In this document: positions 16,157 to 62,320 of the stretch, piece by piece
Position numbering within the stretch: the stretch's first letter is position 1
Layout: every line of letters begins with the position of its first letter
Assembly: GCF_026210795.1 (NCBI RefSeq)
Contig: NC_089436.1
Span: 1 to 64,000, forward strand
Source: Rhizophagus irregularis
Taxonomy: Eukaryota
DNA: 64,000 nt
Direction: 5' to 3'
Translations under genes and position numbers: made by a program
Notes under the pieces: generated by a model
Database searches by the model: none
Told to the model about the DNA's origin: nothing
Seen by the model: only the letters and a program-made list of their open reading frames with translations

Positions 16157-16339
16157 TGTCACAAAATTTGCCTGGAATTTTTCTGGCAAATTGAGAATTA
16201 TCCCGGTAAATTGGGGTAAATTGGGTTACAATTTTGGGATAATGGAGGACTTACAATTTGGCAAATTTTGTCAAAATGGCAGAATTCCTACAGAATTCCT
16301 AATTCAAATGTTGAGAAATTTTTCAGTAAATTATCATTA

Positions 16340-17230
16340 AATTGTGGGAAATTTTAGGCAAATCTTTAGTAATTTTATGCAAACGAAGTGCAAATTGTGG
16401 TGAATTTAGTTAAATTTTTAGTAATTTTATGCAAATGTAATGTAAATTGTGGTGAATTTTAGGCAAATTTTAGTAATTTTATGCAAACGTAATGCAAAGT
16501 GGTGAATTTGGTTAAATTTTTAGAAATGTTATGTAAACGAAGTGCAAATTGTGGTGAATTTAGTTAAATTTTTAGTAATTTTATGTAAACGAAGTGCAAA
16601 TTGTGGTGAATTTAGTTAAATTTTTAGTAATTTTATGCAAATGTAATGTAAATTGTGGTGAATTTTAGGCAAATTTTTAGTAATTTTATGCAAACGTAAT
16701 GCAAATTGTGGTGAATTTAGTTAAATTTTTAGAAATGTTATGTAAACGAAGTGCAAATTGTGGTGAATTTAGTTAAATTTTTAGTAATTTTATGTAAACG
16801 AAGTGCAAATTGTGGTGAATTTAGTTAAATTTTTAGTAATTTTATGCAAATGTAATGTAAATTGTGGTGAATTTTAGGCAAATTTTTAGTAATTTTATGC
16901 AAACGTAATGCAAATTGTGGTGAATTTAGTTAAATTTTTAGAAATGTTATGTAAACGAAGTGCAAATTGTGGTGAATTTAGTTAAATTTTTAGTAATTTT
17001 ATGTAAACGAAGTGCAAATTGTGGTGAATTTAGTTAAATTTTTAGTAATTTTATGTAAACGTAATGCAAATTGTGGTGAATTTAGTAAATGTAATGCAAA
17101 TTGTGGTGAATTTAGTCAAATTTTTAGTAATGTTATGTAAACGTAATGTAAATTGTGATAAATTATAGTAAATTTTTAGTAATTTTATATAAACGTAATG
17201 CAAATTGTGGTAAATTATAGTGTATTTTTA
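16340..17230. repeat. ~51-bp satellite
   Basis: About 16 copies of TTTTTAGTAATTTTATG(C/T)AAACG(A/T)A(G/A)TGCAAATTGTGGTGAATTTAGTTAAA, with higher-order periodicity. Confidence 0.95.
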
Positions 17231-17679
17231 GTAATGTTATATAAATTGTTGAAAATTTAGGAGGATTTTTCAGCAATGTTGTGCAAACGTAATGCAAATT
17301 GTGAAAAATTGTGGTTAATTTTGCATTTTTTCGGTAAATGTTAGCTAAATTTTTGAATAATTTAGTGAAATTTAGGATAATTTCGGATAATTGAGTGAAA
17401 ATGTTTTACCGATTTTGAACAATTGAGTGTAAACAGTATAAATGCAACATTTTCGGAGACAATTTAGTGAAATTTTGCAATAATTTTGGACAATTAAGTG
17501 AAATTTTGCAATAATTTCGGACAATTGAGTGAAATTTAGTAATAATTTTAAACAATTTAGTGTAAACGTTATAACAATTTAAAACATTGATTTAATAATT
17601 TTACATAATTTATTACAATATTATTTATTAACAAATGCACAATTATTATTTAATAATAAGAATCTATATTAATTTATAT

Positions 17680-20095
17680 TCATCAGATATCCAATAATCC
17701 ATAGGTAATCCGCACCTCTAATTCATTCATGTATCTAATGTCTGATGCCAAGTAGAAGCTGGCGAAAACCTACAAAAAAAGTAAAGAAACGTTAGTTAAC
17801 GTTTCTTAAAAAAAAATTAATAAAAGTTTCACAACCAATGTTGCGAAACTCACCGGTTCGTTTTGAGTTCCATTATCCAAACGTCTGGAACCTACAAAAA
17901 GTAAAAAAGAAACGTTAGGTAATGTTTCTTTTTAAAAAAAAAAGAATAAAAATTAAGTTTCGCAACACAATGTTGCGAAACTTACCGGTTCGTTTCGATT
18001 TCCATTATCCAAACGTCCGGAACCTACAAAAAGTAAAAAAGAAATGTTAGTTATCATTTCTTTTAATAAAAAAAAACAAAAATTAAGTTTCGCAATGTAA
18101 CATTGCGAAACTTACTGGTCGTTTCCATCATTCTAACGTCCGAACCTACAAAAGTAAAAAAGTTAAACGTAATATAAACGTTTCTTTTAATAAAAAAACA
18201 AAATTAAGTTTCGCAATGTAACATTGCGAAACTTACCGGTCGTTTCCATCATTCTAACGTCCGGAACCTACAAAAAGTAAAAAAGAAACGTTAATATAAA
18301 TGTTTCTTTTAAAAAAAAAGAATAAAATTAAGTTTCGCAACACAATGTTGCCAAACTTACCGGTTCGTTTCGATTTCCATTATCCAAACGTCCGGAACCT
18401 ACAAAAATTAAAAGAAAGAAACGTTTAGTATCATTTCTTTAAAAAAAAATAATTAAAAAAATAAGTTTCGCAATACAATATTGCGAAACTCACCGGTTCG
18501 TTTCGATTTCCATTATCCAAACGTCCGGAACCTACAAAAATTAAAAGAAACGTACGTTAATATCGTTTCTTTAAAAAAAAAATTAAAATTAAGTTTCGCA
18601 ACAATTGTTGCGAAACTTACCAGTTCGTTTCGAGTTTCAAACGTCCGGAACCTACAAAAAAAAAGAAAGAAACGTTAGTTAACGTTTCTTTTAATAAAAA
18701 AATTAAAAATTAAGTTTCGCAACGATTCATTGCGAAACTCACCGGTTGTTTTCATCATTCTAACGTCCGGAACCTACAAAAAGTAAAAAAGAAACGTTAT
18801 AAATATAAACGTTTCTTTTTAAAAAAAAAGAATAAAATTAAGTTTCGCAATGTAACATTGCGAAACTTACCGGTCATTTTCATCATTCTAACGTCCGAAC
18901 CTACAAAAGTAAAAAAAGAAACGTTAATATAAACGTTTCTTTTAAAAAAAAAGAATAAAATTAAGTTTCGCAATGTAACATTGCGAAACTTACCAGTCGT
19001 TTCCATCATTCTAACGTCCGGAACCTACAAAAAGTAAAAAAGAAACGTTAATATAAACGTTTCTTTTAAAAAAAAAAAAGAATATAATTAAGTTTCGCAA
19101 CACAATGTTACGAAACTTACCGGTTCGTTTCGATTTCCATTATCCAAACATCTGGAACCTACAAAAAAAAAGAAAGAAACGTTAGTTAACGTTTCTTTTA
19201 ATAAAAAAATTAAAAAATTAAGTTTCGCAACGATTCGTTGTGAAACTCACCGTTCGTTTCATCTAAACGTCCAGAACCTACAAAAGAAGGAAAGAAACGT
19301 TAGTTAACGTTTCTTTTAATAAAAAAAAAATTTAACAAAAAAAAGAAAATATTACCTTTCTTCCAAAGTCCGGGTCGTAATTTCGTCCGGCATTCCTACA
19401 AAAGAAGAAAGGAAACGTTAGAAACGTTTCCTAAAAGAAATTAAAAAAAGTAAGTTTCGAACACGAAACTTACCATTTCACTTTCCGAAGTTGAAGACCT
19501 ACACAAAAGAAAAATAGGAAACGTTAGAAACGTTTCCTTACAAAAAAGAATTAAAAAAATTTTTTTTTAAAAAAGTTTTGAAGCGAACGCTTCGAAACTT
19601 ACCATTTTTCGTTTTCTCGTTTTCTAAGTCAAAAATACCGAAAGACCTAAAAAAAAAATAAAGGATCGTTAAAAACGATCCTTATAAAAGCAAAAAAAAA
19701 AAAAATTTATTTTAAAGTTTCAAGCGAAACGCTTCGAAACTTACCATAATTTCAGTTCGTTTCCCAAAGTCAAAACATCGAAAATCCTACAAAAAAGAAA
19801 GAAAGGAAACGTTAGAAACGTTTCCTTACAACAAAGAATTAAAAAAAAAAATTAAAATTTAAAAAAGTTTTGAAGCGTTTCGCTTTGAAACTTACCATTG
19901 TTTTTCTGAAAGACGGTTCCGGGAAGGGGAAAGGGAATGGGAAAGGAGAACGAAAGAAAAAAGAGGAGAAAACAAAAGAGAAGGGGAGAACGAAAGGGAA
20001 AGGGGGAAATGAAACGAAAAGGGAAGGGGAGAACGAAAGGGAAAGAGGAAGGGAGGAAGGTGAAATGGTGAAAGAAAGGAGAAGTAAAGGCCGTG
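17680..20095 (-). other. Putative multi-micro-exon transcript: 18 exons, 17 double-hairpin spliceosomal introns
   Basis: 17 donors (GTAAGT/GTGAGT, one GTAATA) alternate with 17 pyrimidine-rich TAG acceptors, with a TAAC-type branch motif ~20-25 nt upstream. Introns are about 78-109 nt and internal exons 25-44 nt. The first exon is CT-rich (~19896-20095) and the last exon is unique (from 17769 leftwards). Splicing is predicted, not demonstrated. Confidence 0.75.
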
Positions 20096-20097
20096 AG

Positions 20098-20235
20098 AAA
20101 AAAAAATTAAGCTTTTGCTAAAAAAAGCTTAATTTTTTTTTTTCGTTATACCGCAGCGGTAATTATTAAGTAATATCACGTGACACACGTGATATATAAT
20201 TTTATATAAATAGGGGCTTTCCCCCGCCCCGGAAT
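20098..20235. promoter_or_regulatory. Cluster of short palindromes with two CACGTG boxes, upstream of the micro-exon transcript
   Basis: AAAAAAATTAAGCTTTT..AAAAGCTTAATTTTTTT; TACCGC-A-GCGGTA; ATATCACGTG-ACA-CACGTGATAT; GGGGC..GCCCC. Confidence 0.4.
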
Positions 20236-20599
20236 TTTTCTTTTTTTATTTAATAATTTTAAATAGATGTATATATATGCTTATATATACATATATATAT
20301 ATCTATTAACTAATACTTTACGAAAAGTTCCCTCCTCTGTAAACAGGTAGAGGCCATAAAGTATCTATAGGGGGAGAGCCATTGCTGCTCCCTCCGCCTG
20401 TTTATAGTGACAAAAAGAGGGAGTCTTCAGTAGTAAGGTTTAGTATTAAATTACATCACAACACATCGTGTTGATACATTGTTAATATTAACAATGTGTT
20501 TAATGTTAAATAATGCGTTTAAAATATAAATATTATAAATTTAATAATGTACGTAATTAAATAAATAAAAATTATCATCAATTTTTAATGTAATTAAGT

Positions 20600-21691
20600 G
20601 TAATGCTACGTTATCCAATGTAATTGTAGTATTTTTTTTGTGTTTTTTAGTGCAATTCCGCGTTTTTTAGTGCAATTCCGCATTTTCTAGCATAATGTTA
20701 CATTTTCCAGTATAACGCGAAATTTTCTAAAAAAAAATGATAATTGTGGTACTTTTTAGTGTAATGCTACATTGTCTAGTGCAATTGTGGTATTTTTTAG
20801 TGCAATTCCGAATTTCTAGCATAATGTTACATTTTCCAGCATAATAACGAAATTTTCTAAAAAATATGATAATTGTGGTACTTTTTAGTGTAATGCTACA
20901 TTGTCTAGTGTAATTGTGGTATTTTTTAGTGCAATGCCACATAATCTAGTATAGTGCTACATTTTTTAGTATAATTTAATGTAATGTGGAATTTTCCAAA
21001 AAATGAGATAATTGTGATGCTTTTTAGTGTAATTTGGTGAAATGCTACATTTGATGTAATGCTATATTACTGAGCATTTTCAAAAAAAAATGTAAAATCT
21101 TAACATTTTGACGAAAATGAAACATTTTGACCAAAAAAACGTAAAATTTGCTGAAAATATGCAACATTTGACAGAAAATATAGAATTTTCGTAAAAAAAT
21201 ACAGCCATTTGCAAGAAAATCGGAATATTTGACAAAATTTGACAATGTTACAACAATTTTATGAAATGTTGTTACAATGATATCACATTGAAGATAAAAT
21301 GTGGCATTTTCATAAAAATGCACTATTTGCAAGAAAATTGGAACATTTGACAAAAAAAAAGCAAAATTTGATTTTAATTGACAATGTTATAACAATTTTA
21401 TTAAATGTTATTACATTTGAGGTAAAATGTGAAATTTTCATAAAAATGCACCATTTGCAAGAAAATTGGAACATTTGACAAAAAAAAAGCAAAATTTGAT
21501 TTTAATGACAATGTTATAACAATGTTACGAAATGTTACAAAAATGTTACATTTGAGATATAATGTAGCATTTTCCCAAAATTTCATAAGATTTGCTAAAT
21601 CGGACAATGTTGTAACAATGCTATTCCAAAAAATTGCTCAGCGTAATGCAGCATTTTCCACAATTTCCCACCATTTTTCAGAAGAATGGGG
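20600..21691. repeat. Two complex tandem-repeat blocks ending in a possible CCC-type transposon terminus
   Basis: ~120-bp duplication at 20670-20935 and ~130-bp units at 21200-21560; abrupt end ...GAAGAATGGGG|TA. No partner TIR found. Confidence 0.65.
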
Positions 21692-29220: not shown

Positions 29221-32200
29221 GGGTAGAGAAATCGCTATAATTAATTTTTATTATAGTAAAATGTCCAAAAAAAAAAAATTCTGTAATACGATTTCATTGC
29301 AATACCAACTTTTGGTAATACTTAACAAAAAAGGATAAAATTTACATGGTTAGAAAGCCACGGGTCTGAACTACTATTTTTTAACTTAAAAAGATATATT
29401 CGTTTAAAAACTTTTTTGAAAAACTTTCATATGAAGTTTTAAAATGATCATGAATGTCTATATGTTTTTGGCGAATGTGAAATAAAGAAAATTATTGGGT
29501 TCCACATTTTTGGTTCATTTTTGAGTTGACGCGTCATATAAGTCTTTTCTAATTTTAGAAACAAATTTTATTACATTATTTTATACATTATTTTATAAAA
29601 TATACATATATTTATCTTCGAGAATGGCAAAGCCACATTTTCCAATTCTTTTCCATTACTATTGCAGTTACACCTTCAATAACACCAACTATGTGAATAT
29701 TTGTTTGCAACGTATTTCCATTTGGATTTGGCCGGTACAAGTTTATCATTATTTTTACCATTCCACGTATTATAAGCCAGTCTAGCAAGTGCTGAGCGTC
29801 TGCTTTTGTACGGACAATTTTTTTTCGTGTTTCATGATAAATATTCAATGAGGTAAGCTCTTCATTATCACACTTGAGTTGACAATAAACCTGTATGATA
29901 TCTTTTGGTGAAATTAATTTTCCACTTTCACGCAGCTTATTTATTATTTCTTCAACCACCCCTACCATTTTGATAGCATCAGTTTTTACATCAACTTCAT
30001 GTACTAGCTCAGCTTGTACGCGTAAGCAGTTGTCACAATGTGCACATGGAGGACTTAAATTATCACCATTCCATGCAAAATATTCGGCAAGCATTTGCTC
30101 TCTACAGATATATTGTTCTTCACAAAAATGAACAACTTCAAATATTTTTTCACATGCTTTGGCCAGGTATTCTTTTCTTTTATTTGCCTCAAAACTATCA
30201 TTCATATCTTCAGTTATACTACAAAATATATTTTTAATTAAATCATAATATTAATTATATTTCTTTACACAATTAATACTTACGATTCTCTACTTTGTGT
30301 TATAATTGTATAATTAGTGCAAATATCATGGCGGGTATAAAAAATTATACACTTCGCGGGATTATGGTCTCTTCCCGCTCTTCCAGTTTCTTGTACAAGA
30401 TTGCCTATTTTAAAGGGTAAGATTAGTTTTATTAATAATGCTATTATATTTATTTCTTTGATATAATAGTAGTGTCTTACCTATACTCAATGGAAATGAA
30501 TAATGTATTACCAAACGAACTTTTTTATCATTAAGACCCATACCAAAAGCATTAGTTGCAATTATAAGTTGGATTGTATTCTCTTTCCATGATTTCAATT
30601 TTTTTTTTTCTTCACTGTCTAAGGAACTATAATACACAGCCATTGGTAATCCAAGGCCAGATTTTTCCTGAAGTTGCTCATAAACATCATCACATATTCG
30701 TACTGTTGGACAGTAAATAATGCATTTCCCTTCATTTAATTCTTTTAATAGGGTAATAATTTCTCCAATGGTTTTTTCCTTAGTACTTTTAGGGTGCATT
30801 TTCATTGTAAGTTCTGGACGTGAAAAAGATAACCCTCGAACAAAAGCCACATCATTTGAAGCAAGTCCGAGATTCTCCAAAATTAGATAAGCATCAGATT
30901 CCTTGCAAGTTCCCGTAAGCATCATAATTGGACTACTTGGAAAGAATGTTGAAATTTTTCTTAATTTACTCCAGGATTCTCTATATAAGTTAAGTTTAAT
31001 ATATCAAATGAAATTTTTAAATTAATATTTGAATTATATCTTACCTAAAATGCTTGCATTCTATAATGCAATGCACTTCATCTATTACAAATGATACAGG
31101 TGCATATTTTGCGAAATTTAAAAGCATTCTGGTAAATGAACTATTGTTGATAAAGCTTTCTGCAGTTATATATAAGATTTTAATCAACCCAATAGCGATC
31201 TCAGAAAAGACTTTTTCAAAATATTGTGGAGGTTGATGCTTTCCGGTATAGATGCTAGCACATCCAATTCCAGCAGCAATTGTTTCGATCTATAGAAATA
31301 TTAAATTATAATCTTTCTTTCATTAATTGTAGTAAATAATCAGTTTAACTTACCACTTGATCATCAATTAAAGATACTAATGGACTTATTACAACAGTCA
31401 AACCTTCGCGTAAAATTGCAGAAATCCAATAACACATTGTTTTTCCTGCACCTGTACGCATTGAGATAAAGGTATGTTTTCCATTTACATATGATGATAT
31501 TGCTATTTCCTGCATATCTTGAAACTCTTGATATCCAAACATTTTTACAAGTATATCATATGATGTAGGTGGATTAGCTATTAAATTTTGTGGTGGTGGT
31601 ATATATTGTTTATCTGGAAATTCCTGATACCATCCATATTTGAAACAAAATTCATGGTATCGACATAAGCCTAATGGAGAATACTTTGGAAATGCTTTAC
31701 AAGCCAAACATTTCTGAATTTTTTCAAAATCAAGTATATGTTTGGCAAATGTAGGTTCAAATTCTTTAGCTTTGATTTTTTCTTGAACATTACGTCCATA
31801 AGGTACGAAATCCTAAAGAAAATATTTTTTATATTATTTATTTATTTTATTTATTCAATTTTGAATTAGCATATGATGCTCACTGTACCTTATCCCAATC
31901 AAATGTTTCCAAGTTAGTTTTTTGTTCTTGGATTTTTTTGCCTCGTTCTTCATTTCATTTAGCAATATCATTAGAATTTCTTTGGTTTTGTTTTTTTCGT
32001 TCTTCGGCTATTTTACTAATATTTTTCTCATCAGTTTCAGAAAAATATGGAATATTACATGCTGATCGGGCAATTTTCAGCATATTTAACAAACCATTGT
32101 TATATTGAAGAACAGCTAGAGCATGTCGAGTACTATAGGTTTTTCAATAATCAATTTTTTTATCTTGAAAGCATAATTTAACTCGATTGAATGCTTCATT

Positions 32201-36588: not shown

Positions 36589-38609
36589 ATGGGTAAAGAT
36601 AACAAAAAGAAAAATAACCAGTCTAACAAAGATACTACATCTAAACGTCCTGCCTCTAGCTCTCCAACTGGCAACGTTTCTGGTCAAGGTTCCTCTATGT
36701 CTGGCCCTTCGAACCCTCCACCTTCGACCACCTCTACTAATAAACGTACCAGAGTCAGTGCTGATGACTCTGTCATGGATGTTGATAAACCTCTCACGCC
36801 TCCTGGCCCTGTTGAGACAACTTCCGCTGAGATACCCTCTCAACCCAATACCTCCTCCTCTCGAAGCTTCGCAACACGCCCCTGCTAACAACAACGATAA
36901 AGGCAAAAGCCCTGAAATTACTCCCGCAGTCTCTTTCCCTGAACGTGCTGCCTCTCCGGACGCGTCCCAAGCTGCAGTACAATCTCAACCTACACTTTTC
37001 TACGCCTCGGCCGCTCCTAATGACGTCGATGGCTTTTGGAATCACTTCGCTTCGAACCGCGACGCGTGCGACGCGGTTGATCGACAACTTTCCTTGTTCT
37101 CCTCTTATGGTAGTCGTGCCACGTGTAGTGGATCCAACGATTTGAAGAGGATCATCGTCCACTTCCGAAAAAGGATGATCTTGACACAGCCACAGCTTCC
37201 CCTATGGAATCTTTGTTTGGCTTGCATTTCCATGCATATGATCCCCAGGCTATTAAGGCTGATGAACACGCGCGTACCCTGGTGGTTACCGATATCCCCC
37301 TTTTTCTAACTGACGCTCTTTTGCGTGGTACCTTTTCTCGTTACGGCAATATTACTCGTTGCCATACCCGTTTATCTAAACTTTATCGTACTGCATACAT
37401 TACCTTTGAATCTACTGGTGCTTTACAGAACCTCGACTCTACCTGGGCGTCCTTTGTGGAGGACATTGTTTGCGTATCTGCCCCGCTACTTTCTCACCTG
37501 AACAACGCGCTGAAAGACGCGCTTATGTTGCTTTACTTGCCGGTCTCCCGCGTGGCACTGTAGCGGTCGATCTTGCTGATATCGCCGATGAAATTTCCGC
37601 TAAATCTATCAATGTTCCCTTCTCTATGAATTCTTACAATCCCAAACCTTACGCCTATTGCCACTTTGCCTCTGAAACGGCTATGGAAAATGCTAAATCT
37701 ATTTCATGTGCCCTCAAGAAAGTTGGCCTTACCTGGCATTCTCCGGATGAAGTCACTTCTCTTTGTCATCGATGTGGTCGCCCTAATTGTAACCCTGATC
37801 AATGTGGTTCTTCATCTAGACCTAATCGCCCTTCTCGCCCTTGGCAATCTAATGATAAATTACGTGCTTTATATAATAAGCATCTACCTCCTTCTCATCC
37901 TGCTAAACGACATAACCGTTTTGCCCGCCCTGATAACAATAATGATGGACAAAGCCGTACCAATGCTTCTCGCCATCGTTCTAAATCCAGACCTAATAAC
38001 CGACAACAATCTCGTTCTCGTTCTCGACGTCGACCATGGAATCGTGACAATGTTAATAATAATAATAATAATCAACGTCGTCGTATTCCTGATGCAAATG
38101 AACTTGATCACTATGCTGATGGCATGGATGTTACATACCCTGCTCCTCCTACTGTGCTTACTGATTGGAAATCTATTGGTGCTGCTCTTGAAAAAGTAGT
38201 TGAAGAATTAGCCCTTCTTACCACACAATTTGCTTCCATGAACAGCCGCATTACTAATTTGGAATCTGCTATGGCTGCTCGCACTCCTGTTCCTGGACCT
38301 TTTGTCACTAAACCTCCTTCCTACATCCCTTCCTCTATGCAAGGATGGGATGATACAGTGAATCGAACTGATAATAATATCCTCGTAGATGTTAATTCTC
38401 CCCCTTTGCAATCGACAAGTGGTTTTTCCCCGATTCCTCATTTTGCTCCCATTCCGCCTTCCAACGTCGCTCCTTCCTCCCCTATTGATATGGAACAGCG
38501 TCTCTCCTCTCTTTCCGATACTGTTGCCTCTTTGGCTGGCTCGATTAAAGAAGGAATCCAACAAAACAACCTCATCTTAGCTCGGCAACAAGGCCAAGCT
38601 AATCAATAA
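36589..38609 (+). CDS. LINE ORF1 (gag-like; RRM-like domains, Cys/His knuckle, Arg/Ser/Asn-rich region, coiled coil); about 3 frameshifts
   Basis: Overlapping ORFs 36589-36888, 36758-37309, 37204-37563 and 37470-38609. RTLVVTDIPL...FSRYGNI...AYITF; ALLAGLP...YAYCHF; CHRCGRPNCNPDQC. Confidence 0.85.
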
Positions 38610-38658
38610 TTGTTCTCTTTTTCCCCCTTCTTTATTACCGATTTATCAGTGTGTAATA

Positions 38659-41600
38659 ATGATGGACAACAATAAACATAATTTTTCCCCTCACCCCTCT
38701 CCCCTTATCAAATTTGGTCAATTAAATGTTAATGGTTTATGCTCCCCTGTTCGACAACAACATTTGCTTAATTTTTTTCTTCACTCCTCTTTTGGTGCTT
38801 TATCTATTAATGATACGCGTCTTTCCCCTTCAAATGCTAAATTTATTTTCAAAAATGAACACTCCCAACATCACTTTAAGTCCTATTGGGCTTGTTCATC
38901 TTCTTCTTCTCGTCCTCATGATGGTGTTGGTATTTTGTTACGTAATCCCCTTCATAAACATGTTCAAACAATTGATCCTTGGAACGGTCGACTTCTTAAA
39001 TTAGATTTGTTCTTTCATCAAACTAAAATTTCTATTATTTCTATATATCATCCCCCTTCTGGTTCTGTTCATCAATCTATTTGCAATGATCTTATTGCCA
39101 AACTTCTTTCTTGGCTCGATTATGCCCGAGCTAATAATTATTTTGTAGTTATTCTTGGCGATTTCAATGCTGATGTAATCGCTCATTCTAATTATTCACC
39201 TAATCATTTTAAGCTTCTTCGCTTGCTTTCTTCTCGGTTTTTTACCGATCATCAAGCTCACTCTTCTACACATGGTCCTGATCCCACTTTCTTTCATGAT
39301 AATGGATCTTCTAGACTGGATTATATCTGGTCTTCACCTGGTTTTCCTGCCCCTGGTCTTTTTTCGCAAGTGGTTACTTGCCCGGATCTTTTTGATCGTC
39401 CTTTCACAGATCACAAAGCTCTTTCAACTGTTTTTGACTTTAGTTCTTGCCTGGCTATCTTGGCTAAATCTCGTCTTAAACAAAAAAAAGAATTGCGTAC
39501 TATTTTCTCTTACGCTTCCACTTCAGTTGAACAATGGAATAATTTTACCACTGAAGTTGATGATTCTCTTGGAGTTTATTTAGATAGACAATATCACCCT
39601 AATTTTGATTTCTCCTCTCTTTCTCTTGATCGTATGTGGCATGCATTGAAAGCTGCCATTATTAGTGCTGCAATTGAAACTTTACCCTTTCAAAAAGTCT
39701 CCAATACACACCGACATTCGTACTCTCCTGAATTAACTAAACTTATTGCTATTAACAAGTTTTTAGATCGATTTTTATATCGCCTTACTACTCGTCGTTC
39801 TAATCGGCCTACTCAGACTGCGCAAATGATTGCCGCTTTGCCTTCCCATCTTGAAAATCTTGCATCCTTACTCCCTGATTACTCAGTTCCTACCTATTCT
39901 ACTACCCCTGCTTCTGTATTTAAATCGTTTTTACGATCACAGAAGAATTTAGTTTCTGCCTTTTTATCTACTAAATTCGCCCAACACCTTACGGACTCAG
40001 TGGAATATTATACTGCACTACGTGATGAACACTTTTCGAACTCGCTCGGCACCTTTATCGATTCTGCCTTATCAGTAGAAAAACGTTCAATTGTTCTTGA
40101 CCGTGTCCTGGTCGTTTTGGACTCAACTCCTACTTTATTAACGGATCCTTCGGATATTAAACATGCGGCTGTTTCTCATTTTCAATCAATTGTTTCTCCT
40201 CCGTTGGTCCACTATTCTTCCATCACTTCATTTCCCGCCCGATGGCAACAAGCTTACACTCCTCTTACAAATGTGTCTGCTTCATTATATGATCCTGTTT
40301 TGGCGCCTATTTCCCTACAAGAATGGTCTGCTGTGATTTCCTCCATGCCAAATAACAAAGCTTCCGGCCCTTCAAAAATTTCTTATGAGATGATTAAACA
40401 TCTGTCCGGTGAAGCCTTGGATTTCTCTCTTTTACTGGCCAATACCTGCCTTTCTCGCGGTGATATTCCTGCTGACTGGCGTGAAGCTGTGGTTTATCCT
40501 ATTCCTAAACCTCACGAATTTGATGCTCAACTCAAGAACACTCGACCTATTACTCTTCTGGAAACAGTTCGAAAATGTGTAGTTAAGGTCGTCACGAATC
40601 GTCTCTCCAACATTCTTGCTGATAATAAAGTTCTCCAAGGTGGTAACTTTGCTGGCTTACCTGGTGGTTCTACTGATGTCCCTATCAAAATGCTTGATGC
40701 GATTATCCATCAACATAAACATGACTCTACTGATGATCAGGAACTATGGATCGTTTCTCAAGACATCTCTAAAGCTTTTGATTCTATGGATTTAAATATG
40801 CTTAAATTAGCTTTAGATAGGTTACATATCCCTGCACTTTTAGTGCGATTTATTTTAAATCTTTTTACACGACGAAATAATAAGATAATCACTTGTCATG
40901 GCGACACAGCTGCTTATAGAGTACATGTTGGTATCGATCAAGGAGAAATCATTTCCCCTCTTCTTTGGGTTATTTATTTGGATCCCTTACTTACTGTTTT
41001 GAATCAAGAAGCACGAGATCCTTTTATTTTAAAATCTTCAGCTCTTTTACATTATTCTCCACTTGAATTTGAACAACATTCTTTACCAGTTTCACATTTA
41101 ACGTTTATGGATGATTCTACACTTATTGCCTCTTCCAAATCTGGAATAGTAGACCGTCTTTCTATTACTGCTGAATTTTATACTTTAAATAATGTTCAAG
41201 CTAATTCAGCAAAATATGTTCTTCTTTCATCCTCTTCGCCTTCTTCAAATATTATTTTTGAACTTTTACCTTCTTCTTTAGTTTCCGATACTTCTCTTTC
41301 CCTTTCCTCTTTATCTCTTAATACTTCATTTCGTTTCTTAGGAGTTTGGTTTTCCTTGTCCGCCTCTTCCGCCTTTGTTTTGAAACAAGCGCGCTCCATG
41401 GTTAAAGATATGGCTGCTCTTCTGGGCCCGAAGAAATTATTAGCTCAACATGTGGCCTATCTCTATAATGCTGTCCTTCTTCCGCGATTGGAATTTCGTC
41501 TTCAAACTACCCTTTTCTCTGAAAGTACTATTCAATCAATTGTTAAACCTATGTTTTCAGTACTTCGAAGAAAAGCTGGTCTTGCTACGACTACTCCGTT

Positions 41601-44046
41601 GCCCTTGTTATTTCTCAAACTTCCTTTTTCGATTCAAAATGCTTTCTATCGCTTTCTTTCTTCCCATATGGCATCTTGGCAAAAAATTTTCACTCATCCT
41701 GATTTCAAAGACTTTGCTCTTTATGCTATCTCCTTTCTTCAAGGATATTTGGGTGCTGAAAGTTGCCCGACTACTATTAACTTAGAACCATGGTCGCAGA
41801 TCGTTTCTTTGCGAACGCACACTTTGTTCAATTCGTTATTGTTTTCTTCGCGTTTGAACATCACGTGGTCTCTCTCCTTCCGGCCTCCGAGGCATGATCT
41901 GCAACCTGCTCTGCCACTCCGGTCTATTCTACCTCATTCCATTTTTCAATCGAGTTGGAAACTTTGGAAAAACTTGAATATATTTGTGCTTGCTCAGTTG
42001 GTTTCTCCTTGTGGACGTTACCTTATGAATTGGCCTGACCTTCGTTATCTTGGCATCGTTGGTCGTAAAGGACGGATCCCTAATTGGTTTACTTTTATCA
42101 ATAATAATTTTCTCTCTTCTTCTTCTTCTACTTTACTTTTATCTTCATATTTTATTAATTCTTCTTTTACTTTAGCTTCTCCTTGTTTATTAGATCATAC
42201 TGTTAAAGATTATTCTTTTTATCCTCAATGGGCTATTACTTTTGACTCTGCTACCCAAACTTTATCTGTTGGTCGTGTGTGTATCACTTATAAGAAACAA
42301 AACTCGGCTATTATGTCTCATTGGCTTCCTGTATCTACCTCGGCTGATGAACGATCCTATGACCCTTGTCCCGGTTGTGCTCTCAACATTCCCGCCTTAT
42401 CCATGAAATCTGCCATCAGACAACGCTGTAATAGCGAGAAATGCTTTTTTAATGTAACTCTATCAGATACTGTGGGCTATCCTACCAGAAATGCCAAAGT
42501 TTTCGCGGCTTACCTTCCCATTACTCTATCTACTTCATGGAGTTATGCGACTTCCTTGGCTCTTGTTCAATTTTCAAACGCGTCTCCTGTTCTTTCTCCT
42601 CTCTTTAAGGATAGAATCGATAGAATTGAAGACACTATTTTACCACTTTCGGTGCAATCTTTGTACACAGATGGTTCGTTCCATCCTGCCAATGATTCTT
42701 CGCCCTCTTCCATGACTTCTGCTTGGATTGCTCTTGATGATGTTGGACTTGTTCTGGAATCTTCTTCCATGCACCTCCCTTCTTACTTTCCTTCCGCTTT
42801 GCGTTCTGAAATTTCTGCTGTTCTATTAGGATTGAACGCCCTTTCCCGTGATTCGTCAATCTTTATTCATACTGATTGTAGTCAGTTAATTTCACTATGG
42901 ACATGGTTTGTTGATGCCCCTTTCTCACCGAAGTTGCTCCGAGAACCTAATCATCTTCTTTGGCTTTCTATTCGACAACTTATCATGGATCGTAATCTTA
43001 ATGTCGAATTGATTAAAGTCCCTGCTCATGGCGATGATATCTACAATATACAAGCGGATTCTTTGGCAAAAGATGCTCATTCGTCTTTACAACCCACTAC
43101 TCTACTTTCAACATTTTGTTATGCTCCATGCTTGTTGACTTTTAACTCCTTACCTATTGACGTGAATATTCGACATTTTCTCCGCTCTATTGCAGATGCT
43201 CGTGCTCTTTTATCTTTCTGTTCGCTAGCGCGTTTTACTGCTCTTGGTTCTCCTTCACTTTTTGATTGGGCTGGTATATATTTTTGCCTTTCACAAATTA
43301 AAGGTTTTGCTTCACATAGGAATGGTCGCCCTGAATTTTGGATCTTCCGCATTAAACTTCTTTTGGATATGTTGCCTACTTTAACTACTCTTCAACAACG
43401 TAAACCTTACTTATATTCTCCTGACTGGCTCTGTCCGCAGTGTAATTCTGCTCCTGAAGATTTGAACCATCTTTGGACTTGTCCTTATATTTTACCAGAT
43501 TTAAATCCCTGTTTAACACACCGGTCTGAAGTCATTAAATTTAGAGATTCTTGTTTATCTTCTTTCCTATCCTTGAAATCTTTGGATAATTCCTTTCATA
43601 CCGAGTTCTTTGCTTTGGATTGCTGGAACTATGAAGCTCCTTCTTCATCCTGTCTTTGGCTTACTCGAGGATTGTTGCCTGCGCATTTAACGGCATTTTT
43701 GAATCAATACTTTCCTCTCTCTGTTATATACAAGATTATTTCTCCCCTTCTTAATGACTTCCAAGTCGAATTATATGGTGAAATTTGGCTGTGTCGGAAT
43801 GTTCTTTTCCATGCTTGGGAGGAGTCGCAGGGTATCTCGGCTGCTTCCAAATTACGTGGCCCTTCTACAAATTCTTTCCCTAATACTACTTCTCCACAAC
43901 AACGTAACTCTTCTTTGGCGTCAGTTTCTCAGGATTCCTGGATTTCTTGGATATCCTCTTCTATAATTCGGGGTGGATCTTGGATCTCGCACTTGGATTT
44001 TCTGCGCCGCTTAACAGTTCAACCTCTTAGGATTTCTTTCTGGTAA
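38659..44046 (+). CDS. LINE ORF2: AP endonuclease, reverse transcriptase, RNase H, C-terminal CCHC finger (1795 aa, intact)
   Basis: QLNVNGL, ILGDFNA, RLDYIW, TDH (APE); KASGPS, RPITLL, DISKAFDS, GIDQGEIISP, FMDD, FLGV (RT); YTDGS, RSE, HTDC, KVPAH..N..AD.LAK (RNase H); CPQC...HLWTC. Confidence 0.98.
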   Translation: MMDNNKHNFSPHPSPLIKFGQLNVNGLCSPVRQQHLLNFFLHSSFGALSINDTRLSPSNAKFIFKNEHSQHHFKSYWACSSSSSRPHDGVGILLRNPLHKHVQTIDPWNGRLLKLDLFFHQTKISIISIYHPPSGSVHQSICNDLIAKLLSWLDYARANNYFVVILGDFNADVIAHSNYSPNHFKLLRLLSSRFFTDHQAHSSTHGPDPTFFHDNGSSRLDYIWSSPGFPAPGLFSQVVTCPDLFDRPFTDHKALSTVFDFSSCLAILAKSRLKQKKELRTIFSYASTSVEQWNNFTTEVDDSLGVYLDRQYHPNFDFSSLSLDRMWHALKAAIISAAIETLPFQKVSNTHRHSYSPELTKLIAINKFLDRFLYRLTTRRSNRPTQTAQMIAALPSHLENLASLLPDYSVPTYSTTPASVFKSFLRSQKNLVSAFLSTKFAQHLTDSVEYYTALRDEHFSNSLGTFIDSALSVEKRSIVLDRVLVVLDSTPTLLTDPSDIKHAAVSHFQSIVSPPLVHYSSITSFPARWQQAYTPLTNVSASLYDPVLAPISLQEWSAVISSMPNNKASGPSKISYEMIKHLSGEALDFSLLLANTCLSRGDIPADWREAVVYPIPKPHEFDAQLKNTRPITLLETVRKCVVKVVTNRLSNILADNKVLQGGNFAGLPGGSTDVPIKMLDAIIHQHKHDSTDDQELWIVSQDISKAFDSMDLNMLKLALDRLHIPALLVRFILNLFTRRNNKIITCHGDTAAYRVHVGIDQGEIISPLLWVIYLDPLLTVLNQEARDPFILKSSALLHYSPLEFEQHSLPVSHLTFMDDSTLIASSKSGIVDRLSITAEFYTLNNVQANSAKYVLLSSSSPSSNIIFELLPSSLVSDTSLSLSSLSLNTSFRFLGVWFSLSASSAFVLKQARSMVKDMAALLGPKKLLAQHVAYLYNAVLLPRLEFRLQTTLFSESTIQSIVKPMFSVLRRKAGLATTTPLPLLFLKLPFSIQNAFYRFLSSHMASWQKIFTHPDFKDFALYAISFLQGYLGAESCPTTINLEPWSQIVSLRTHTLFNSLLFSSRLNITWSLSFRPPRHDLQPALPLRSILPHSIFQSSWKLWKNLNIFVLAQLVSPCGRYLMNWPDLRYLGIVGRKGRIPNWFTFINNNFLSSSSSTLLLSSYFINSSFTLASPCLLDHTVKDYSFYPQWAITFDSATQTLSVGRVCITYKKQNSAIMSHWLPVSTSADERSYDPCPGCALNIPALSMKSAIRQRCNSEKCFFNVTLSDTVGYPTRNAKVFAAYLPITLSTSWSYATSLALVQFSNASPVLSPLFKDRIDRIEDTILPLSVQSLYTDGSFHPANDSSPSSMTSAWIALDDVGLVLESSSMHLPSYFPSALRSEISAVLLGLNALSRDSSIFIHTDCSQLISLWTWFVDAPFSPKLLREPNHLLWLSIRQLIMDRNLNVELIKVPAHGDDIYNIQADSLAKDAHSSLQPTTLLSTFCYAPCLLTFNSLPIDVNIRHFLRSIADARALLSFCSLARFTALGSPSLFDWAGIYFCLSQIKGFASHRNGRPEFWIFRIKLLLDMLPTLTTLQQRKPYLYSPDWLCPQCNSAPEDLNHLWTCPYILPDLNPCLTHRSEVIKFRDSCLSSFLSLKSLDNSFHTEFFALDCWNYEAPSSSCLWLTRGLLPAHLTAFLNQYFPLSVIYKIISPLLNDFQVELYGEIWLCRNVLFHAWEESQGISAASKLRGPSTNSFPNTTSPQQRNSSLASVSQDSWISWISSSIIRGGSWISHLDFLRRLTVQPLRISFW

Positions 44047-47550: not shown

Positions 47551-50500
47551 TTACCAATTTTCATATTTATCTATTATATAATAATATTTTTTTTTTCAAG
47601 GAATACTTCAAAAAATCCGACATTTCTATCAATACCAATTACTTCCACATATTGTAAAGGACCAAAACTATCAAAAAATTTTAAATTCACACTACTATTT
47701 TTCTCTAATTTTTTGATTTTTCGAATATATGCAAACATTCGCTTTTGATTTTGAAATTCATGAACCATAAAATATTCAATTTGTCCAAAAATTTCTTCTT
47801 CTCTCAAATTTAGAGGAGCACGGTAATTTCTTTCTTGTAAGTCAACAGTTAAATTAATCTATATAATAAAATTATCTTATTAATATTTTGAATTTTGAAT
47901 ATATAATGAAACAATAATAATAATTAATATATTTATTTCTTACAGCGACGCAAAAATCATTTCGACTACTATCATTTTCTTTTTTCCACCACTTAGATGA
48001 TATAATGTTACCATCCTTTGTACGAAGTTTTCCATACTTAGCATAGTTTTTTTTAATGTCCTATATAAAAAAAATTATATATTATTTTTTTTAAAAAAGA
48101 ATATTCTTATACATATTATTATGTGAGTTATAATATAAAATCACCGTAATTTCGCTAGTATTCTTTTGAAATATAGCTGCATAACATTGCTTTAACTTTA
48201 TGACTTCATTTTTTGTTAATACACAATTAACAAATGGTGAATAAAATTCGTATTCGTGAACATATAATTCATTAGAATATACTCTATGCACCGGCCATGT
48301 TTTTTTTCTTTTTCTTTAAAATTGGAAAAAACTTTTTCATTATATATTGGTAAAAGTTGCAGATACTTAAATCTTTCTTGCATCAACACATTATTAAACA
48401 AATTCACATATGGTAGTTTTCGAGAGCTAACAAGTGGAATTAACATTCCACAAAACCTCTCCATCGGAAACTGCCAAAATTCACGACAAGGGCCAAAGTC
48501 TTCAATCGAATCTATTACATGTAATAAATAATGAAAAGAAATTAAAAATGCCGGTAATCTTTCTCCTCCAACGCCATATGAACTATTGCACAAAAAAATT
48601 CACGCGATCAATAAAAATATCGTTTAAAGAAAAAGGCATATATAAATTTCATAAGAAAATTACTTTGCATAATGATTGTAAAATTCTATTAATAAATTTC
48701 GAATTAAATCTAGCTCTTCAAATTCTATTAGAGGTTGAATGCATAACTTGACAGCTTCAACAAATCTTGACCATCCTTAGAGGTTACTATTATTTTAAGT
48801 TAAATAATGATATCAGCAGACTTTTTATTATTTTATCTGCCAACAATTTGATTTTTTTTATTACCTTTGCGGCAATCGCCCTTTTAGTAATGGTAAAGAG
48901 AATAAAATGATCCAATTAGCCCACTCTACAGCTTTAAACCCAGCTGAATGTTTAACGATATTGCGTGGAGGACGTCCAATATCAGGTGGCATATGAGATC
49001 TACTTCGTTCCATGATTTCACCAATTTCAACCCATGTTTTAGAACTTATTGTATATTCATTTGAGTTCCATTCATTATTTTTTGGATAGAATTTTCCTAT
49101 CCAATGTCGAAACATATGGGGTGCAACATTTTCGAAAAAAAGGTGCATTATATCTACTGGAAATGAACGTGGAAAATTTATAGAAAATAACTCAAATAAA
49201 ATACTCTTTCCTTTAATTCCTAATTTTTTTATTAAACAAAAAATTTTTAAAATTGAGAAAATATATTAATATTAATTACTAAGAATTTATTTTTATTTTA
49301 AAATATTGGACCAACCGCAATCACGTATATAAGTTTCTCTACGATCTTCCTCCAGACGTTCTATTTGATTTGTGCTATTCAGTATTTCATCATGTGTTCG
49401 AATTGGTAATCGTTTAGGATCAATATTTTGTTGCAATGGATAATACACATGTCTATTCGTTTCATTTAAAGTCCCTCGAAGATTACAAAATCTGCAACCT
49501 GAGTATGAATTATGTCCTGTTAAACATAGAACTTTTGAAAGGGCAGGGATATCGCCGGTCCAAGCCAGAATGTGAGCACGTAGAGTAAACTGTTCCTCTT
49601 TGTTACCATCGTAACAAGAGATTCCATCTGTAAATATTAAAAATATTATTAATAAATATTACATTTATTACGTACCATTTATTTAAAATATACCTTGTAA
49701 GGATTTCATTTCTTGAATTAATGGATAGAGAAATGAATTAAAATCTTTAGGTTGTTTTGGCCTCAGGATTATTAAAGTTACCATTAAATTTTCTTTCTTT
49801 ACTCTTAATTCTTGAGGTAAATTATTATTTAGAAACAGGAACACCCAACAATCATCGGTCTTTTGACGAAATATTTGGTAGCCGTCGCAAGAAGCAGTAA
49901 ATGCGATATCTCTTGGATCGGGAAAATATTCGTCATTTAATAATTCTTGATAAATCTGTCCATCAAAAATGTCACCTATGTTATTATGAGCAAATTCTCC
50001 TTTATTACAAGTATAATTGTGCCTATATAATAGTTCTTTAGATCTTTCAGGGTTTTTAAATTGAAGCTTTAAACGCTCAATTATAGAAATAAAAGGTAGA
50101 TTTTTTCTCGCTTTACCATTACTATAATATCGATCCTCCTTACAAAATTTACATTTTGTTTCATTTTCTAAAACTCCTACGAATGCACAACATGAATTAA
50201 CGCACATATCGTATATTTTTGGTTCAATTCCTACTATTGAACCAAGCTTTCTTTTTACTTTATTAAAACTTATTTTATTTCTATTGAAGGCTTTATATAT
50301 ATTATTAAATGCTGCTTCAGAAAAATTAAAATTCGATTTCACATATAAAAGCCTTAATCCTTCGAACAATTCATTAGAAAAAGTCGTATTATCTAAAAAA
50401 AAGTTGGTAAATTACTAATTTAAAATATTATTATAATTATTTCGAAATTCACCTTCTTTATCATCAGAGGTATCAAACTCTAATTCACTTTGAGAATCAT

Positions 50501-61679: not shown

Positions 61680-62320
61680 TAAGACCGATTAGAATCACGA
61701 ATTCACGATTATTAAGAAAAATTCTTGGGAATTTTTCTTGATACTGCTTATTTTAAAGTTTAAAGACCGATTAGCAAACTGAAATCACGATTTCAAGAAA
61801 AATTCTCGTGAATTTTTCTTGATAGCTTATTTTTAAAGTTTAAATAAATTGAAATCACGATTTTTTAAGAAAAATTCTTGTGAATTTTTCTTGATGCTGC
61901 TTATTTTAAAGTTTAAAGACCGATTAGCAAACTGAAATCACGATTTCAAGAAAAATTCTCGCGAATTTTTCTTGATACCGCTTATTTTTAAAGTTTAAAT
62001 AAATTGAAATCACGATTTTTTAAGAAAAATTCTTGTGAATTTTTCTTGATGCTGCTTATTTTAAAGTTTAAAGACCGATTAGCAAACTGAAATCACGATT
62101 TCAAGAAAAATTCTCGCGAATTTTTCTTGATACTGCTTATTTTTAAAGTTTAAATAAATTGAAATCACGATTTTTTAAGAAAAATTCTCGCGAATTTTTC
62201 TTGATGCTGCTTATTTTAAAGTTTAATGACCGATTAGTAAACTGAAATCACGATTTCAAGAAAAATTCTTGCGAATTTTTCTTGATACAGACTGATTAGT
62301 AAATTGAAATCACGATTTTT
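61680..62320. repeat. Tandem array of the AAGAAAAATTC..GAATTTTTCTT palindrome unit
   Basis: About 8 alternating units, same family and orientation as 46845-47400. Confidence 0.92.

Follow-up and report, generated by a model that had tools for sequence, protein, structure and literature searches.

Folding of RNA across splice signals has been described for individual regulated exons and for engineered constructs. Such examples include individual natural cases of hairpins that sequester a splice site, along with hairpins engineered in yeast; a short stem there covers either the branch site or the 5' splice site and must melt before U1 or U2 pairs. Here, we describe an array of 17 predicted introns on the minus strand of the first 64,000 nucleotides of contig NC_089436.1 from Rhizophagus irregularis (hereafter the window, to whose numbering all coordinates refer). 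As in the sequestration cases, short stems lie over the signals; unlike in them, almost all introns of an entire family of loci have both signals enclosed, the arms covary, and the introns are strung together by non-coding micro-exons. Furthermore, each sequestration case concerns one regulated exon, whereas the effect of the array hairpins on splicing is predicted. The reading we favour, with a probability of roughly 0.45 and as judged from the sequence, is that the locus gives rise to a non-coding minus-strand transcript, in which covarying hairpins over the donor and the branch motif would occlude the U1 and U2 sites and render splicing slow or conditional. More generally, control of splice-site choice by sequestration or approximation of signals has been described (PMC4615370).

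Conserved intron structure tied to the positions of splice signals is shared with introns of Saccharomyces cerevisiae, for which zipper stems between donor and branch point, as well as stems downstream of the branch point, are reported (PMC12350175). These stems link the regions between the signals and shorten distances, whereas the array hairpins are local, have loops of 3-9 nt and contain the signal. A zipper stem was considered for the array and rejected, as the minimum-free-energy (MFE) folds of 17/17 introns hold only local hairpins and no donor-to-branch helix; a 5-bp GTTTC/GAAAC cross-pairing, possible by eye, was not predicted in these folds. Near-identical fungal intron families with stable structure or inverted repeats are found among introner-like elements (PMC3609843) and symmetrical stwintrons (PMC8469720), which are reported to have spread to unrelated positions in protein-coding genes, whereas the array introns multiply with their exons by tandem duplication. 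The stwintrons are described with 45-55-nt terminal inverted repeats across the whole intron, as opposed to the two separate small hairpins found here. An introner identity, which implies many unrelated sites in coding genes, was rejected, as each of the 75 curated copies belongs to a tandem array and is accompanied there by homologous micro-exons, and none of these copies was found in a coding host across the window and the metagenome loci. None of the systems compared combines two signal-enclosing hairpins per intron with covarying arms and tandem multiplication alongside non-coding micro-exons, and no description of such an intron-array family was found in the limited set of papers searched.

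Intron array, hairpins and covariation

Positions 17770-19895 (minus strand) comprise 17 head-to-tail GT-AG introns of 78-109 nt, with exons of 25-44 nt between them (Table 1). Each unit consists of a short purine-rich part and an 80-110-nt T-rich part, which opens with GT[AG]AGTTT and closes with a T-run and TAG, then G; CTAAC or TTAAC lies within the T-rich part, at about 22 nt from its end. In composition, purines prevail in the exons (A.32, G.27), and T reaches.50 in the introns. The GT[AG]AGTTT-type donor is present in 16/17 introns, the exception being GTAATA in intron 5 (hexamers: 12 GTAAGT, 4 GTGAGT and 1 GTAATA). All 17 acceptors are TAG followed by G, and the branch motif lies 16-24 nt from the 3' end in 15 introns. 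Tandem Repeats Finder returned periods of 123/251 nt (17767-19331) and of 142 nt in the older 5' part (19497-19899). With 12.5 head-to-tail copies of the 123-nt period at 80% matches, the array is also satellite-like, a character that is additional to its reading as introns and does not replace it.

RNAfold placed a first hairpin (stem 1) of 10-14 bp over the donor in 16/17 introns, usually from +2 to +15 and missing only in intron 5, and a second hairpin (stem 2) overlapping CTAAC/TTAAC in 17/17, which is weakened in introns 12-16 and reduced to 6 bp in intron 14. The intron MFE values range from -10.7 to -28.8 kcal/mol, with z-scores of -3.0 to -9.7 against 100 dinucleotide shuffles per intron. 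The stem-1 arm motif has 27 matches in the window versus 0.53 expected, 26 of them inside the array, and all nine matches of the stem-2 motif, for which 0 were expected, fall inside it. The arms occur in paired variants: CAACA/TGTTG (introns 7, 13 and 16), CAATG/CATTG (8, 9, 14 and 15), CAACG/CGTTG (6, and 10 with one U.G), GAAGCG/CGCTTC (1-3), GGAAACGTT/AACGTTTCC (1, 3 and 4) and AAGGATCGTT/AACGATCCTT (2; 19661-19683). In the window, C-G/U-A and A-U/G-C occur in all four combinations at stem-1 pair positions 14 and 15, with the U.G of intron 10 as an intermediate, and stem 2 of intron 15 has AAATG/CATTT, which is compensated relative to the usual AAACG/CGTTT. A first-pass annotation of this DNA had counted 17 introns with outer coordinates 17770 and 19895, put stem 1 over the donor in 16 of them, assigned the branch motif to stem 2 and listed compensated arm variants. 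The predicted borders match these coordinates, RNAfold agrees on both stems (a few copies of stem 2 having decayed), and every listed variant is present in the window.

Metagenome contigs were scanned for the stem-1 palindrome, which yielded at least 120 loci. Among the matches listed, 11 loci (L001, L014, L037, L055, L056, L064, L067, L081, L083, L096 and L099) share the array architecture: their micro-exons measure 17-48 nt and their introns 56-125 nt, one hairpin lies at the donor, and the hairpin at the branch motif has an AACGTT core. These are soil-metagenome sequences with a G+C of.26-.41, in which L083 equals L081 over its available part. The other 109 of the 120 listed loci are unrelated single palindromes on contigs with a GC of.30-.65; L090 was dismissed as a lone match without array architecture, and 0/8 loci from a scan of viral contigs were relatives. 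The family falls into about six lineages (window and L037; L014 and L056; L064, L067, L096 and L099; L055; L081 and L083; L001). In total, 75 introns were curated and reduced to 68 unique ones (exon tail plus intron), with an empty L014 record at a contig edge excluded. The signals of these 68 are of the U2 type: GTAAGT (40) and GTGAGT (10) account for 50/68 donors, a branch-like motif is present in 68/68 (CTAAC 39, TTAAC 17), CTAAC or TTAAC lies 8-48 nt before the 3' end in 56/68, and the 3' end is TAG in 67/68. The array units look like genuine spliceosomal introns.

For the family as a whole, a signal was scored as covered at a hairpin score of at least 14 (about 7 net pairs), with 1360 mononucleotide shuffles as controls. 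The donor window (-3 to +6) lies under a hairpin in 60/68 unique introns versus 92/1360 shuffles, and the branch motif in 58/68 versus 101/1360. The donor hairpin occurs in three registers, all of which enclose the exon-intron junction, and the U1-pairing bases are either inside the helix or closed by it. The 5' arm spans +2..+15 in register 1 (window type) and -5..+9/+10 in register 2 (window intron 4, L081 and L014), whose 3' arm necessarily resembles the U1 5' end. In register 3 (L001 and L056), the 5' arm is exonic (-13..-1), the final 7-15 exon bases pair with the intron from +6 onward, and GTAWA is held in a 5-7-nt loop. The earlier statement that the introns hide both signals in stems thus stands for the overlap of the two hairpins with the 5' splice site and the branch motif and has to be amended for this last sub-family, in which the donor is looped out.

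Covariation was assessed on MAFFT alignments with the structure assigned by hand, using 500 shuffles and slid partners as controls. For stem 1 (33 distinct sequences), 90.7% of the cells were paired and 8/14 pairs had changed on both sides, in 44 such cells; 0/500 shuffles scored as high, and slid partners gave 24-50% paired cells and at most 5 double-change cells. For stem 2 (40 sequences), the corresponding figures were 89.0%, 8/11 pairs and 31 cells, a share of the signal being the one-base shortening of both arms in L001, versus 0/500 shuffles as high, 29-57% paired cells and at most 7 double-change cells for slid partners. Without alignment, 51 unique stem-1 hairpins with 30 inner 6-mers gave 5.45/6 Watson-Crick (WC) pairs between own arms versus 1.88 between swapped arms, and stem 2 gave 5.74 versus 3.43. 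The cleanest single compensated event is found between the orthologous introns L064_375 and L067_515, which are 98% identical and whose sole two differences turn one stem-1 pair from A-U to G-C. Both-arm changes, for which the first-pass annotation had proposed a covariation test on the aligned introns, thus lie far above the shuffled and slid controls, although the test became convincing only once the related loci had joined the window copies.

Probable splicing and coding content

Contigs of four sequencing runs, presumed to be RNA, were compared with 17300-20250; the strand is not readable from the contigs, and the joints described here are among the 15 listed of 57. Intron 1 was removed exactly by a 19785->19895 joint (cut +1; 109 nt; CT..AC on the plus strand) in one contig of run X18 and two of run X19. 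An 18265->18992 joint (cut +2), equally CT..AC on the plus strand, connects the intron-8 donor to the intron-13 acceptor, one X19 contig carries a 19396->19474 joint (intron 4), and in one X19 contig, three joints coincide with the borders of introns 3, 4 and 5 or lie 1-2 nt off. Two further X19 joints, which go back 38 and 36 nt, are as expected of two identical 38-nt exons placed head to tail. In X16, the fullest run and DNA-like, the joints among those listed are only repeat-unit-sized (132 and 114 nt) and not GT..AG, and would look like DNA copy-number variation. All 17 of the 18-mers that span an exon-exon junction are absent from the window DNA and from the 120 listed metagenome loci. 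Cover is thin above 20072 in X19 and empty below 17597 in X18, edges that would suit transcript limits near 20070 and 17600 but were not taken as evidence of them. Joints exactly at the predicted GT..AG borders in X18 and X19, runs presumed to be RNA and with most contigs 90-95% relatives, agree with the intron identity originally given to the units, and the array introns are likely, albeit not proven, to be spliced.

The micro-exons are non-coding, a feature absent from the first-pass annotation. We call them so because their lengths are mostly not multiples of three (divisible by 3 in 4/16 internal micro-exons) and because the spliced product of 725 nt has stops in all three frames, with a longest open stretch of 78 codons; the frame that starts at its first ATG has 20 codons. 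Folding of the spliced RNA (z = -4.15 versus 30 mononucleotide shuffles) says little, since this RNA is a repeat with a palindromic exon junction. Several small features of the exons were recorded. ATG stands directly before the GTAAGT donor at the end of window exons 1-4 (19896-19898, 19745-19747, 19603-19605 and 19474-19476), and ATG-ending micro-exons are also frequent in L014, L056 and L064. Joining a 38-nt exon to the next (e.g., 18494 to 18398) creates a 10-nt palindrome at the junction, GAACCG/GTTC, and TCCGGA is present in exon starts. The terminal exons of the window array and of L055 have a CAGACATTAGAT motif in common.

A decayed protein-coding repeat gene, or a satellite transcribed by accident, would leave the intron-like signals as relics. 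The 123-nt tandem repeat would suit this explanation, as would the hydrophilic peptide SGRLDNGNRNEP given by one frame of the 38-nt exon and the 78-codon open stretch formed by exons 13-18. Against this, the exons of the relatives, which are homologous to those of the window at the nucleotide level, are equally non-triplet (internal exons divisible by 3: 1/10 in L014 and 2/8 in L056) and contain stops in every frame, while the relatives keep intact splice signals and hairpins; donors, branch motifs and acceptors are kept while exons diverge, and contigs that look spliced exist. We give decay a very small chance. Two gene types were compared directly. SP7-like effectors are described with a signal peptide, one conserved intron ahead of the first repeat and hydrophilic repeats that have Y[KR]Rx[AP]x[AP] at their end (PMC11333574); the spliced product has no open frame, signal peptide or such motif in any frame, and this candidate was rejected. 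The AGL cell-surface repeat genes, described as single-intron genes (PMC8786786), do not fit the array either.

Were the introns themselves the product, the transcript would be a throw-away non-coding host and the hairpins would protect or shape excised stable intronic RNAs. The exons are indeed non-coding and less conserved than the stem arms, and a window-type stem 1 from +2 would shield the 5' end after debranching. In nonsense-mediated decay, a short upstream open reading frame (ORF) before junctions marks an RNA for decay, and the short upstream ORF and many junctions of the spliced form would do likewise here. Hosts of intron-encoded small RNAs resemble the array in combining poorly conserved non-coding exons with better conserved intron elements; unlike in them, there are no C/D or H/ACA features, and the 5' hairpin of one sub-family cannot survive splicing. 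The exon supplies the 5' arm in L001 and L056, and part of it in the L081 type, such that splicing destroys the hairpin. With its exonic 5' arm, a register-3 hairpin is confined to the time before the first splicing step, and its loss on splicing speaks for a role in the pre-mRNA or in the DNA, not in the excised intron. A permissive Rfam scan of 17000-20600 gave 13 sub-threshold matches, all taken as chance, and nothing at the gathering score; the best snoRNA-type match (snoR12) reached 26 bits versus 39, with E=0.089, and an intronic snoRNA or its host was rejected. The linker between the hairpins is T-rich yet not conserved across loci, and an Sm-site-like stretch in it (AATTTTTG in intron 15) was dropped for want of conservation in the relatives, as compared by eye. 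Dicer-type processing needs longer stems than these 10-14 bp. The mirtron-like source that had been suggested on first reading did not hold up: a mirtron would be a single intron-spanning hairpin of at least about 20 bp, and the array introns have two separate hairpins of 10-14-bp stems, 6-15 opposed positions and a T-rich linker. We give the intron-product explanation little chance.

Possible selection on RNA or copying of DNA

As regards the favoured occlusion of splice signals, isolated stem 1 was calculated at -16.1 and -18.2 kcal/mol for its two main types, -13.4 for intron 4 and -8.5 for intron 1, and isolated stem 2 at -10.7 to -12.2 kcal/mol. The donor:U1 duplex, computed with an 11-nt U1 5' end, amounts to -9.1 to -9.4 kcal/mol over 7 bp, so that stem 1, at -13 to -18 kcal/mol in most copies, is predicted to be stabler than the pairing of U1 with the donor. 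The pairing would form in the pre-mRNA and be kept by selection on RNA. With loops of 3-9 nt, each hairpin would close once its 3' arm is transcribed. U1 and U2 alike would then bind only after the helix had been unwound, and splicing would be slow or would depend on helicases, temperature or factor levels. In this manner, the hairpins may delay or gate spliceosome assembly. As the exons code for nothing, the purpose of the locus could be the act or timing of splicing, or the consequences of stalled complexes. Introns 5 and 14 each lack one hairpin, which suggests that the hairpins are not required for splicing and fits an inhibitory or modulating element.

Several observations weigh against hairpins selected as RNA. 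G.U and A.C oppositions number 33 versus 26 overall (p=0.43), i.e., without sense-strand bias; by stem, they are 26 versus 14 (p=.08) in stem 1, where the GTGAGT donor variant accounts for six of the G.U cells, and 7 versus 12 in stem 2. The antisense MFE values equal those of the sense strand. Outside the array, the window holds eight further perfect hairpin sites (arm of at least 10 nt with at least 3 G/C) versus about 0.6 expected. Among such sequences is a tandem repeat at 61793-62285, which has perfect hairpins and no splice signals; the units of this repeat (61700-62300) are of about 77 and 155 nt, and its hairpin, AAGAAAAATTC-(4-nt variable loop)-GAATTTTTCTT, resembles stem 2. A similar hairpin repeat lies directly upstream of the L056 array (oriented 0-480; AAGAAAAGTTC..GAACTTTTCTT, once within a palindrome with 22-bp arms) and has, by eye, G-C where the window has A-T. 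Not every intron needs both hairpins, as there is no stem 1 in intron 5 and a broken stem 2 in intron 14. The double-change cells count sequences and not independent events, many copies being recent tandem duplicates. Finally, the RNA nature of the joint-bearing runs is presumed, and 966/1110 X19 pieces are just 90-95% alike, so much of the joint evidence stems from paralogues or another strain.

The alternative is maintenance at the DNA level. In a genome with many hairpin-bearing tandem repeats, both palindromes of an ancestral unit would have been copied arm to arm by replication template switching or intra-palindrome conversion, and the RNA hairpins would be a tolerated by-product that is not selected for splicing. 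Template switching is reported to be able to create perfect stems in one event and to fix the pairing of existing ones (PMC8794818); short inverted repeats that are perfect, and compensatory changes that seem to involve several bases, are common to it and to the array. Under such copying, the lack of strand bias among mismatches, the like folding of both strands, the excess of hairpin sites and the both-arm difference of the repeat upstream of L056 would all be accommodated. Moreover, intron 2 has paired indels and substitutions on both arms (GGATCG/CGATCC versus GGAAACG/CGTTTCC), and L014_388 looks like a central deletion that left a shorter palindrome; both patterns are economical as single DNA events. 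In units 6-17, the arms have.11-.16 substitutions per site and the exons.18, compared with.23 for the linker and.42-.44 for the loops. The loops are thus the most variable part of the unit, in keeping with copying between arms, whereas arms less variable than linker or exons speak against it.

Template switching is a way in which mutations arise, not a function, and leaves the placement on donor and branch motif in every lineage unexplained. Exactly two palindromes are present per unit, on these two signals, in all six lineages and all three registers, which favours the RNA. The stem-2 loop also keeps the CT that completes CTAAC, the motif that prevails over TTAAC in the 68 unique introns, and the exonic-arm type shows that the conserved thing is a helix across the exon-intron junction. 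In addition, uncorrected single changes remain (A.C in intron 6, U.G in intron 10 and G.G in intron 13). We regard DNA-level maintenance as somewhat unlikely to be the explanation, and copying of DNA and selection on RNA are not mutually exclusive; the arms probably originated from palindromic repeat DNA of a kind common in the R. irregularis genome. Of the earlier proposal that selection acts on RNA structure, the complementarity kept by both-arm changes was upheld, while the lack of a G.U strand bias and the equal folding of sense and antisense strands were not in its favour.

Two more readings would give the occluded signals another role. The arrays could be a dedicated family of non-coding 'intron-array' genes in fungi of the arbuscular-mycorrhiza type, in which the hairpin-locked splice signals would be the only conserved content and would engage the spliceosome in a gated way. 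The transcript would then serve neither a protein nor a conventional small RNA and might hold splicing events in store for slow release, act as a sink for splicing factors or provide an entry point for silencing or a double-strand nuclease. We consider this unlikely. Alternatively, stalled spliceosomes or a double-strand-specific nuclease would feed the transcript into RNA silencing, which would make the locus a source of repeat-derived siRNA. A stalled-spliceosome route to siRNA has been reported in another fungus, the locus lies among transposon remnants (see the last section), and occluded yet consensus splice signals in every intron would fit a stalling design. However, forms that look spliced are present, so the introns would be no dead ends, and there is no sequence feature specific to silencing; the prospects of this explanation are accordingly slim.

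The family matters in either case, as a probably transcribed non-coding repeat family in important plant symbionts. It offers dozens of related introns with both core signals in hairpins, natural arm variants, compensated pairs and wobble intermediates, as well as internal controls in two introns, of which one has no stem 1 and the other a broken stem 2. Provided that the pairing acts on RNA, these would form a ready series on the tolerance of the spliceosome for local structure and on the definition of 25-44-nt micro-exons. If DNA copying keeps the pairing, they would be a clean eukaryotic case of template-switch-type maintenance giving 'covariation' without RNA selection and a warning for covariation-based RNA discovery.

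Feature coordinates and surroundings of the array

Table 1. Features of the intron array and its upstream region, in order of transcription. Arms are given as 5' arm/3' arm, with WC pairs over opposed positions in brackets.
Feature	Position	Strand	Length (nt)	Stem 1	Stem 2	Branch motif	Remarks
Perfect palindrome	20173..20195						Two CACGTG boxes, upstream of transcript; 10-bp arms, 3-nt loop
A/T-rich palindrome	20094..20145						TTAAGCTTTT..AAAAGCTTAA, upstream of leader; only sub-threshold chance Rfam matches
Exon 1	19896..20070	-					Pyrimidine-rich leader ending in ATG (19898-19896) before GTAAGT; 5' limit is a guess
Intron 1	19787..19895	-	109	19881-19893/19865-19877 (11/13)	19817-19827/19803-19813 (11/11)	CTAAC, 19811-19815	
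Micro-exon after intron 1	19745-19786	-	42				
Intron 2	19647..19744	-	98	Bulged	19674-19683/19661-19670 (10/10)	TTAAC, 19668-19672	Stem 2 AAGGATCGTT/AACGATCCTT
Micro-exon after intron 2	19603-19646	-	44				
Intron 3	19499..19602	-	104	19589-19600/19573-19584 (11/12)	19529-19538/19516-19525 (10/10)	CTAAC, 19523-19527	
Micro-exon after intron 3	19474-19498	-	25				
Intron 4	19396..19473	-	78	19464-19478/19445-19459 (13/15)	19423-19432/19410-19419		Stem 1 from exon -5 to intron +10
Micro-exon after intron 4	19356-19395	-	40				
Intron 5	19278..19355	-	78	None	19306-19316/19291-19301 (11/11)		Weak donor GTAATA
Micro-exon after intron 5	19251-19277	-	27				
Intron 6	19159..19250	-	92	19236-19249/19219-19232 (12/14; one A.C, one G.U)	19188-19198/19173-19183		
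Micro-exon after intron 6	19121-19158	-	38				
Intron 7	19025..19120	-	96	19106-19119/19089-19102 (13/14; one U.G)	19056-19067/19038-19049		
Micro-exon after intron 7	18994-19024	-	31				
Intron 8	18901..18993	-	93	18979-18992/18962-18975 (14/14)	18932-18943/18914-18925		Stem 1 -16.1 kcal/mol at 37 C
Micro-exon after intron 8	18871-18900	-	30				
Intron 9	18774..18870	-	97	18856-18869/18839-18852 (14/14)	18808-18820/18786-18798 (13/13)		
Micro-exon after intron 9	18743-18773	-	31				
Intron 10	18652..18742	-	91	18728-18741/18711-18724 (12 WC + 2 G.U)	18681-18691/18666-18676		
Micro-exon after intron 10	18621-18651	-	31				
Intron 11	18532..18620	-	89	18607-18619/18590-18602 (13/13)	18564-18575/18541-18552		Stem 2 with insertion
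Micro-exon after intron 11	18494-18531	-	38				
Intron 12	18399..18493	-	95	18479-18492/18462-18475 (13 WC + 1 G.U)	Weakened		Stem 2 has U.G where intron 15 is fully compensated
Micro-exon after intron 12	18361-18398	-	38				
Intron 13	18268..18360	-	93	18346-18359/18329-18342 (13/14; one G.G)	(11/12; one A.C)		
Micro-exon after intron 13	18237-18267	-	31				
Intron 14	18146..18236	-	91	(14/14)	Only 6 bp		Stem 2 deletion-broken
Micro-exon after intron 14	18116-18145	-	30				
Intron 15	18024..18115	-	92	(14/14)	18055-18064/18037-18046		Stem 2 AAATG/CATTT
Micro-exon after intron 15	17986-18023	-	38				
Intron 16	17892..17985	-	94	17971-17984/17954-17967 (14/14)	(12/13)		Stem 1 -18.2 kcal/mol
Micro-exon after intron 16	17854-17891	-	38				
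Intron 17	17770..17853	-	84	17840-17850/17825-17835 (10 WC + 1 G.U)	17798-17807/17784-17793		
Terminal exon	17600..17769	-					After last TAG acceptor (then G); no long ORF; approximate 3' end

The palindrome with the two CACGTG boxes may be a promoter element, judging by its position and sequence. The leader (19921-20055) is a degenerate 18-24-nt repeat, of GGGAAAGG type on the plus strand and pyrimidine-rich on the transcribed strand, and an X19 contig has a 38-nt insertion of the leader-repeat kind at 20003/20004. Tandem repeats flank the array at 16339-17590 (52/157/209 nt) and 20642-21550 (20/41/129 nt), and a AATTGTGGT motif (plus strand) is common to both. Among the relatives, L064 has, downstream of its array (oriented, about 1300-1840), a tandem repeat with the stem-1 outer arms reversed (AAACTT..AAGTTT) beside CTTACGGACCGTAAAC. 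The first 300 nt of L037 are G+C-rich and bacterial-looking, and the remainder is an A+T-rich intron array; this contig is probably a chimeric assembly.

The array sits in a repeat-rich stretch. The G+C of the window is 24-43%, with about 28% around the array. The Atlas clusters closest to one ORF of the window are for the most part from Mucoromycota, which would suit a fungus of the arbuscular-mycorrhizal kind. A long LINE-type ORF with endonuclease, reverse-transcriptase and RNase H domains occupies 38581-44046, a tnp2-family transposase fragment lies at 49683-50411, and a RecQ zinc-binding fragment is found at 29612-30250.

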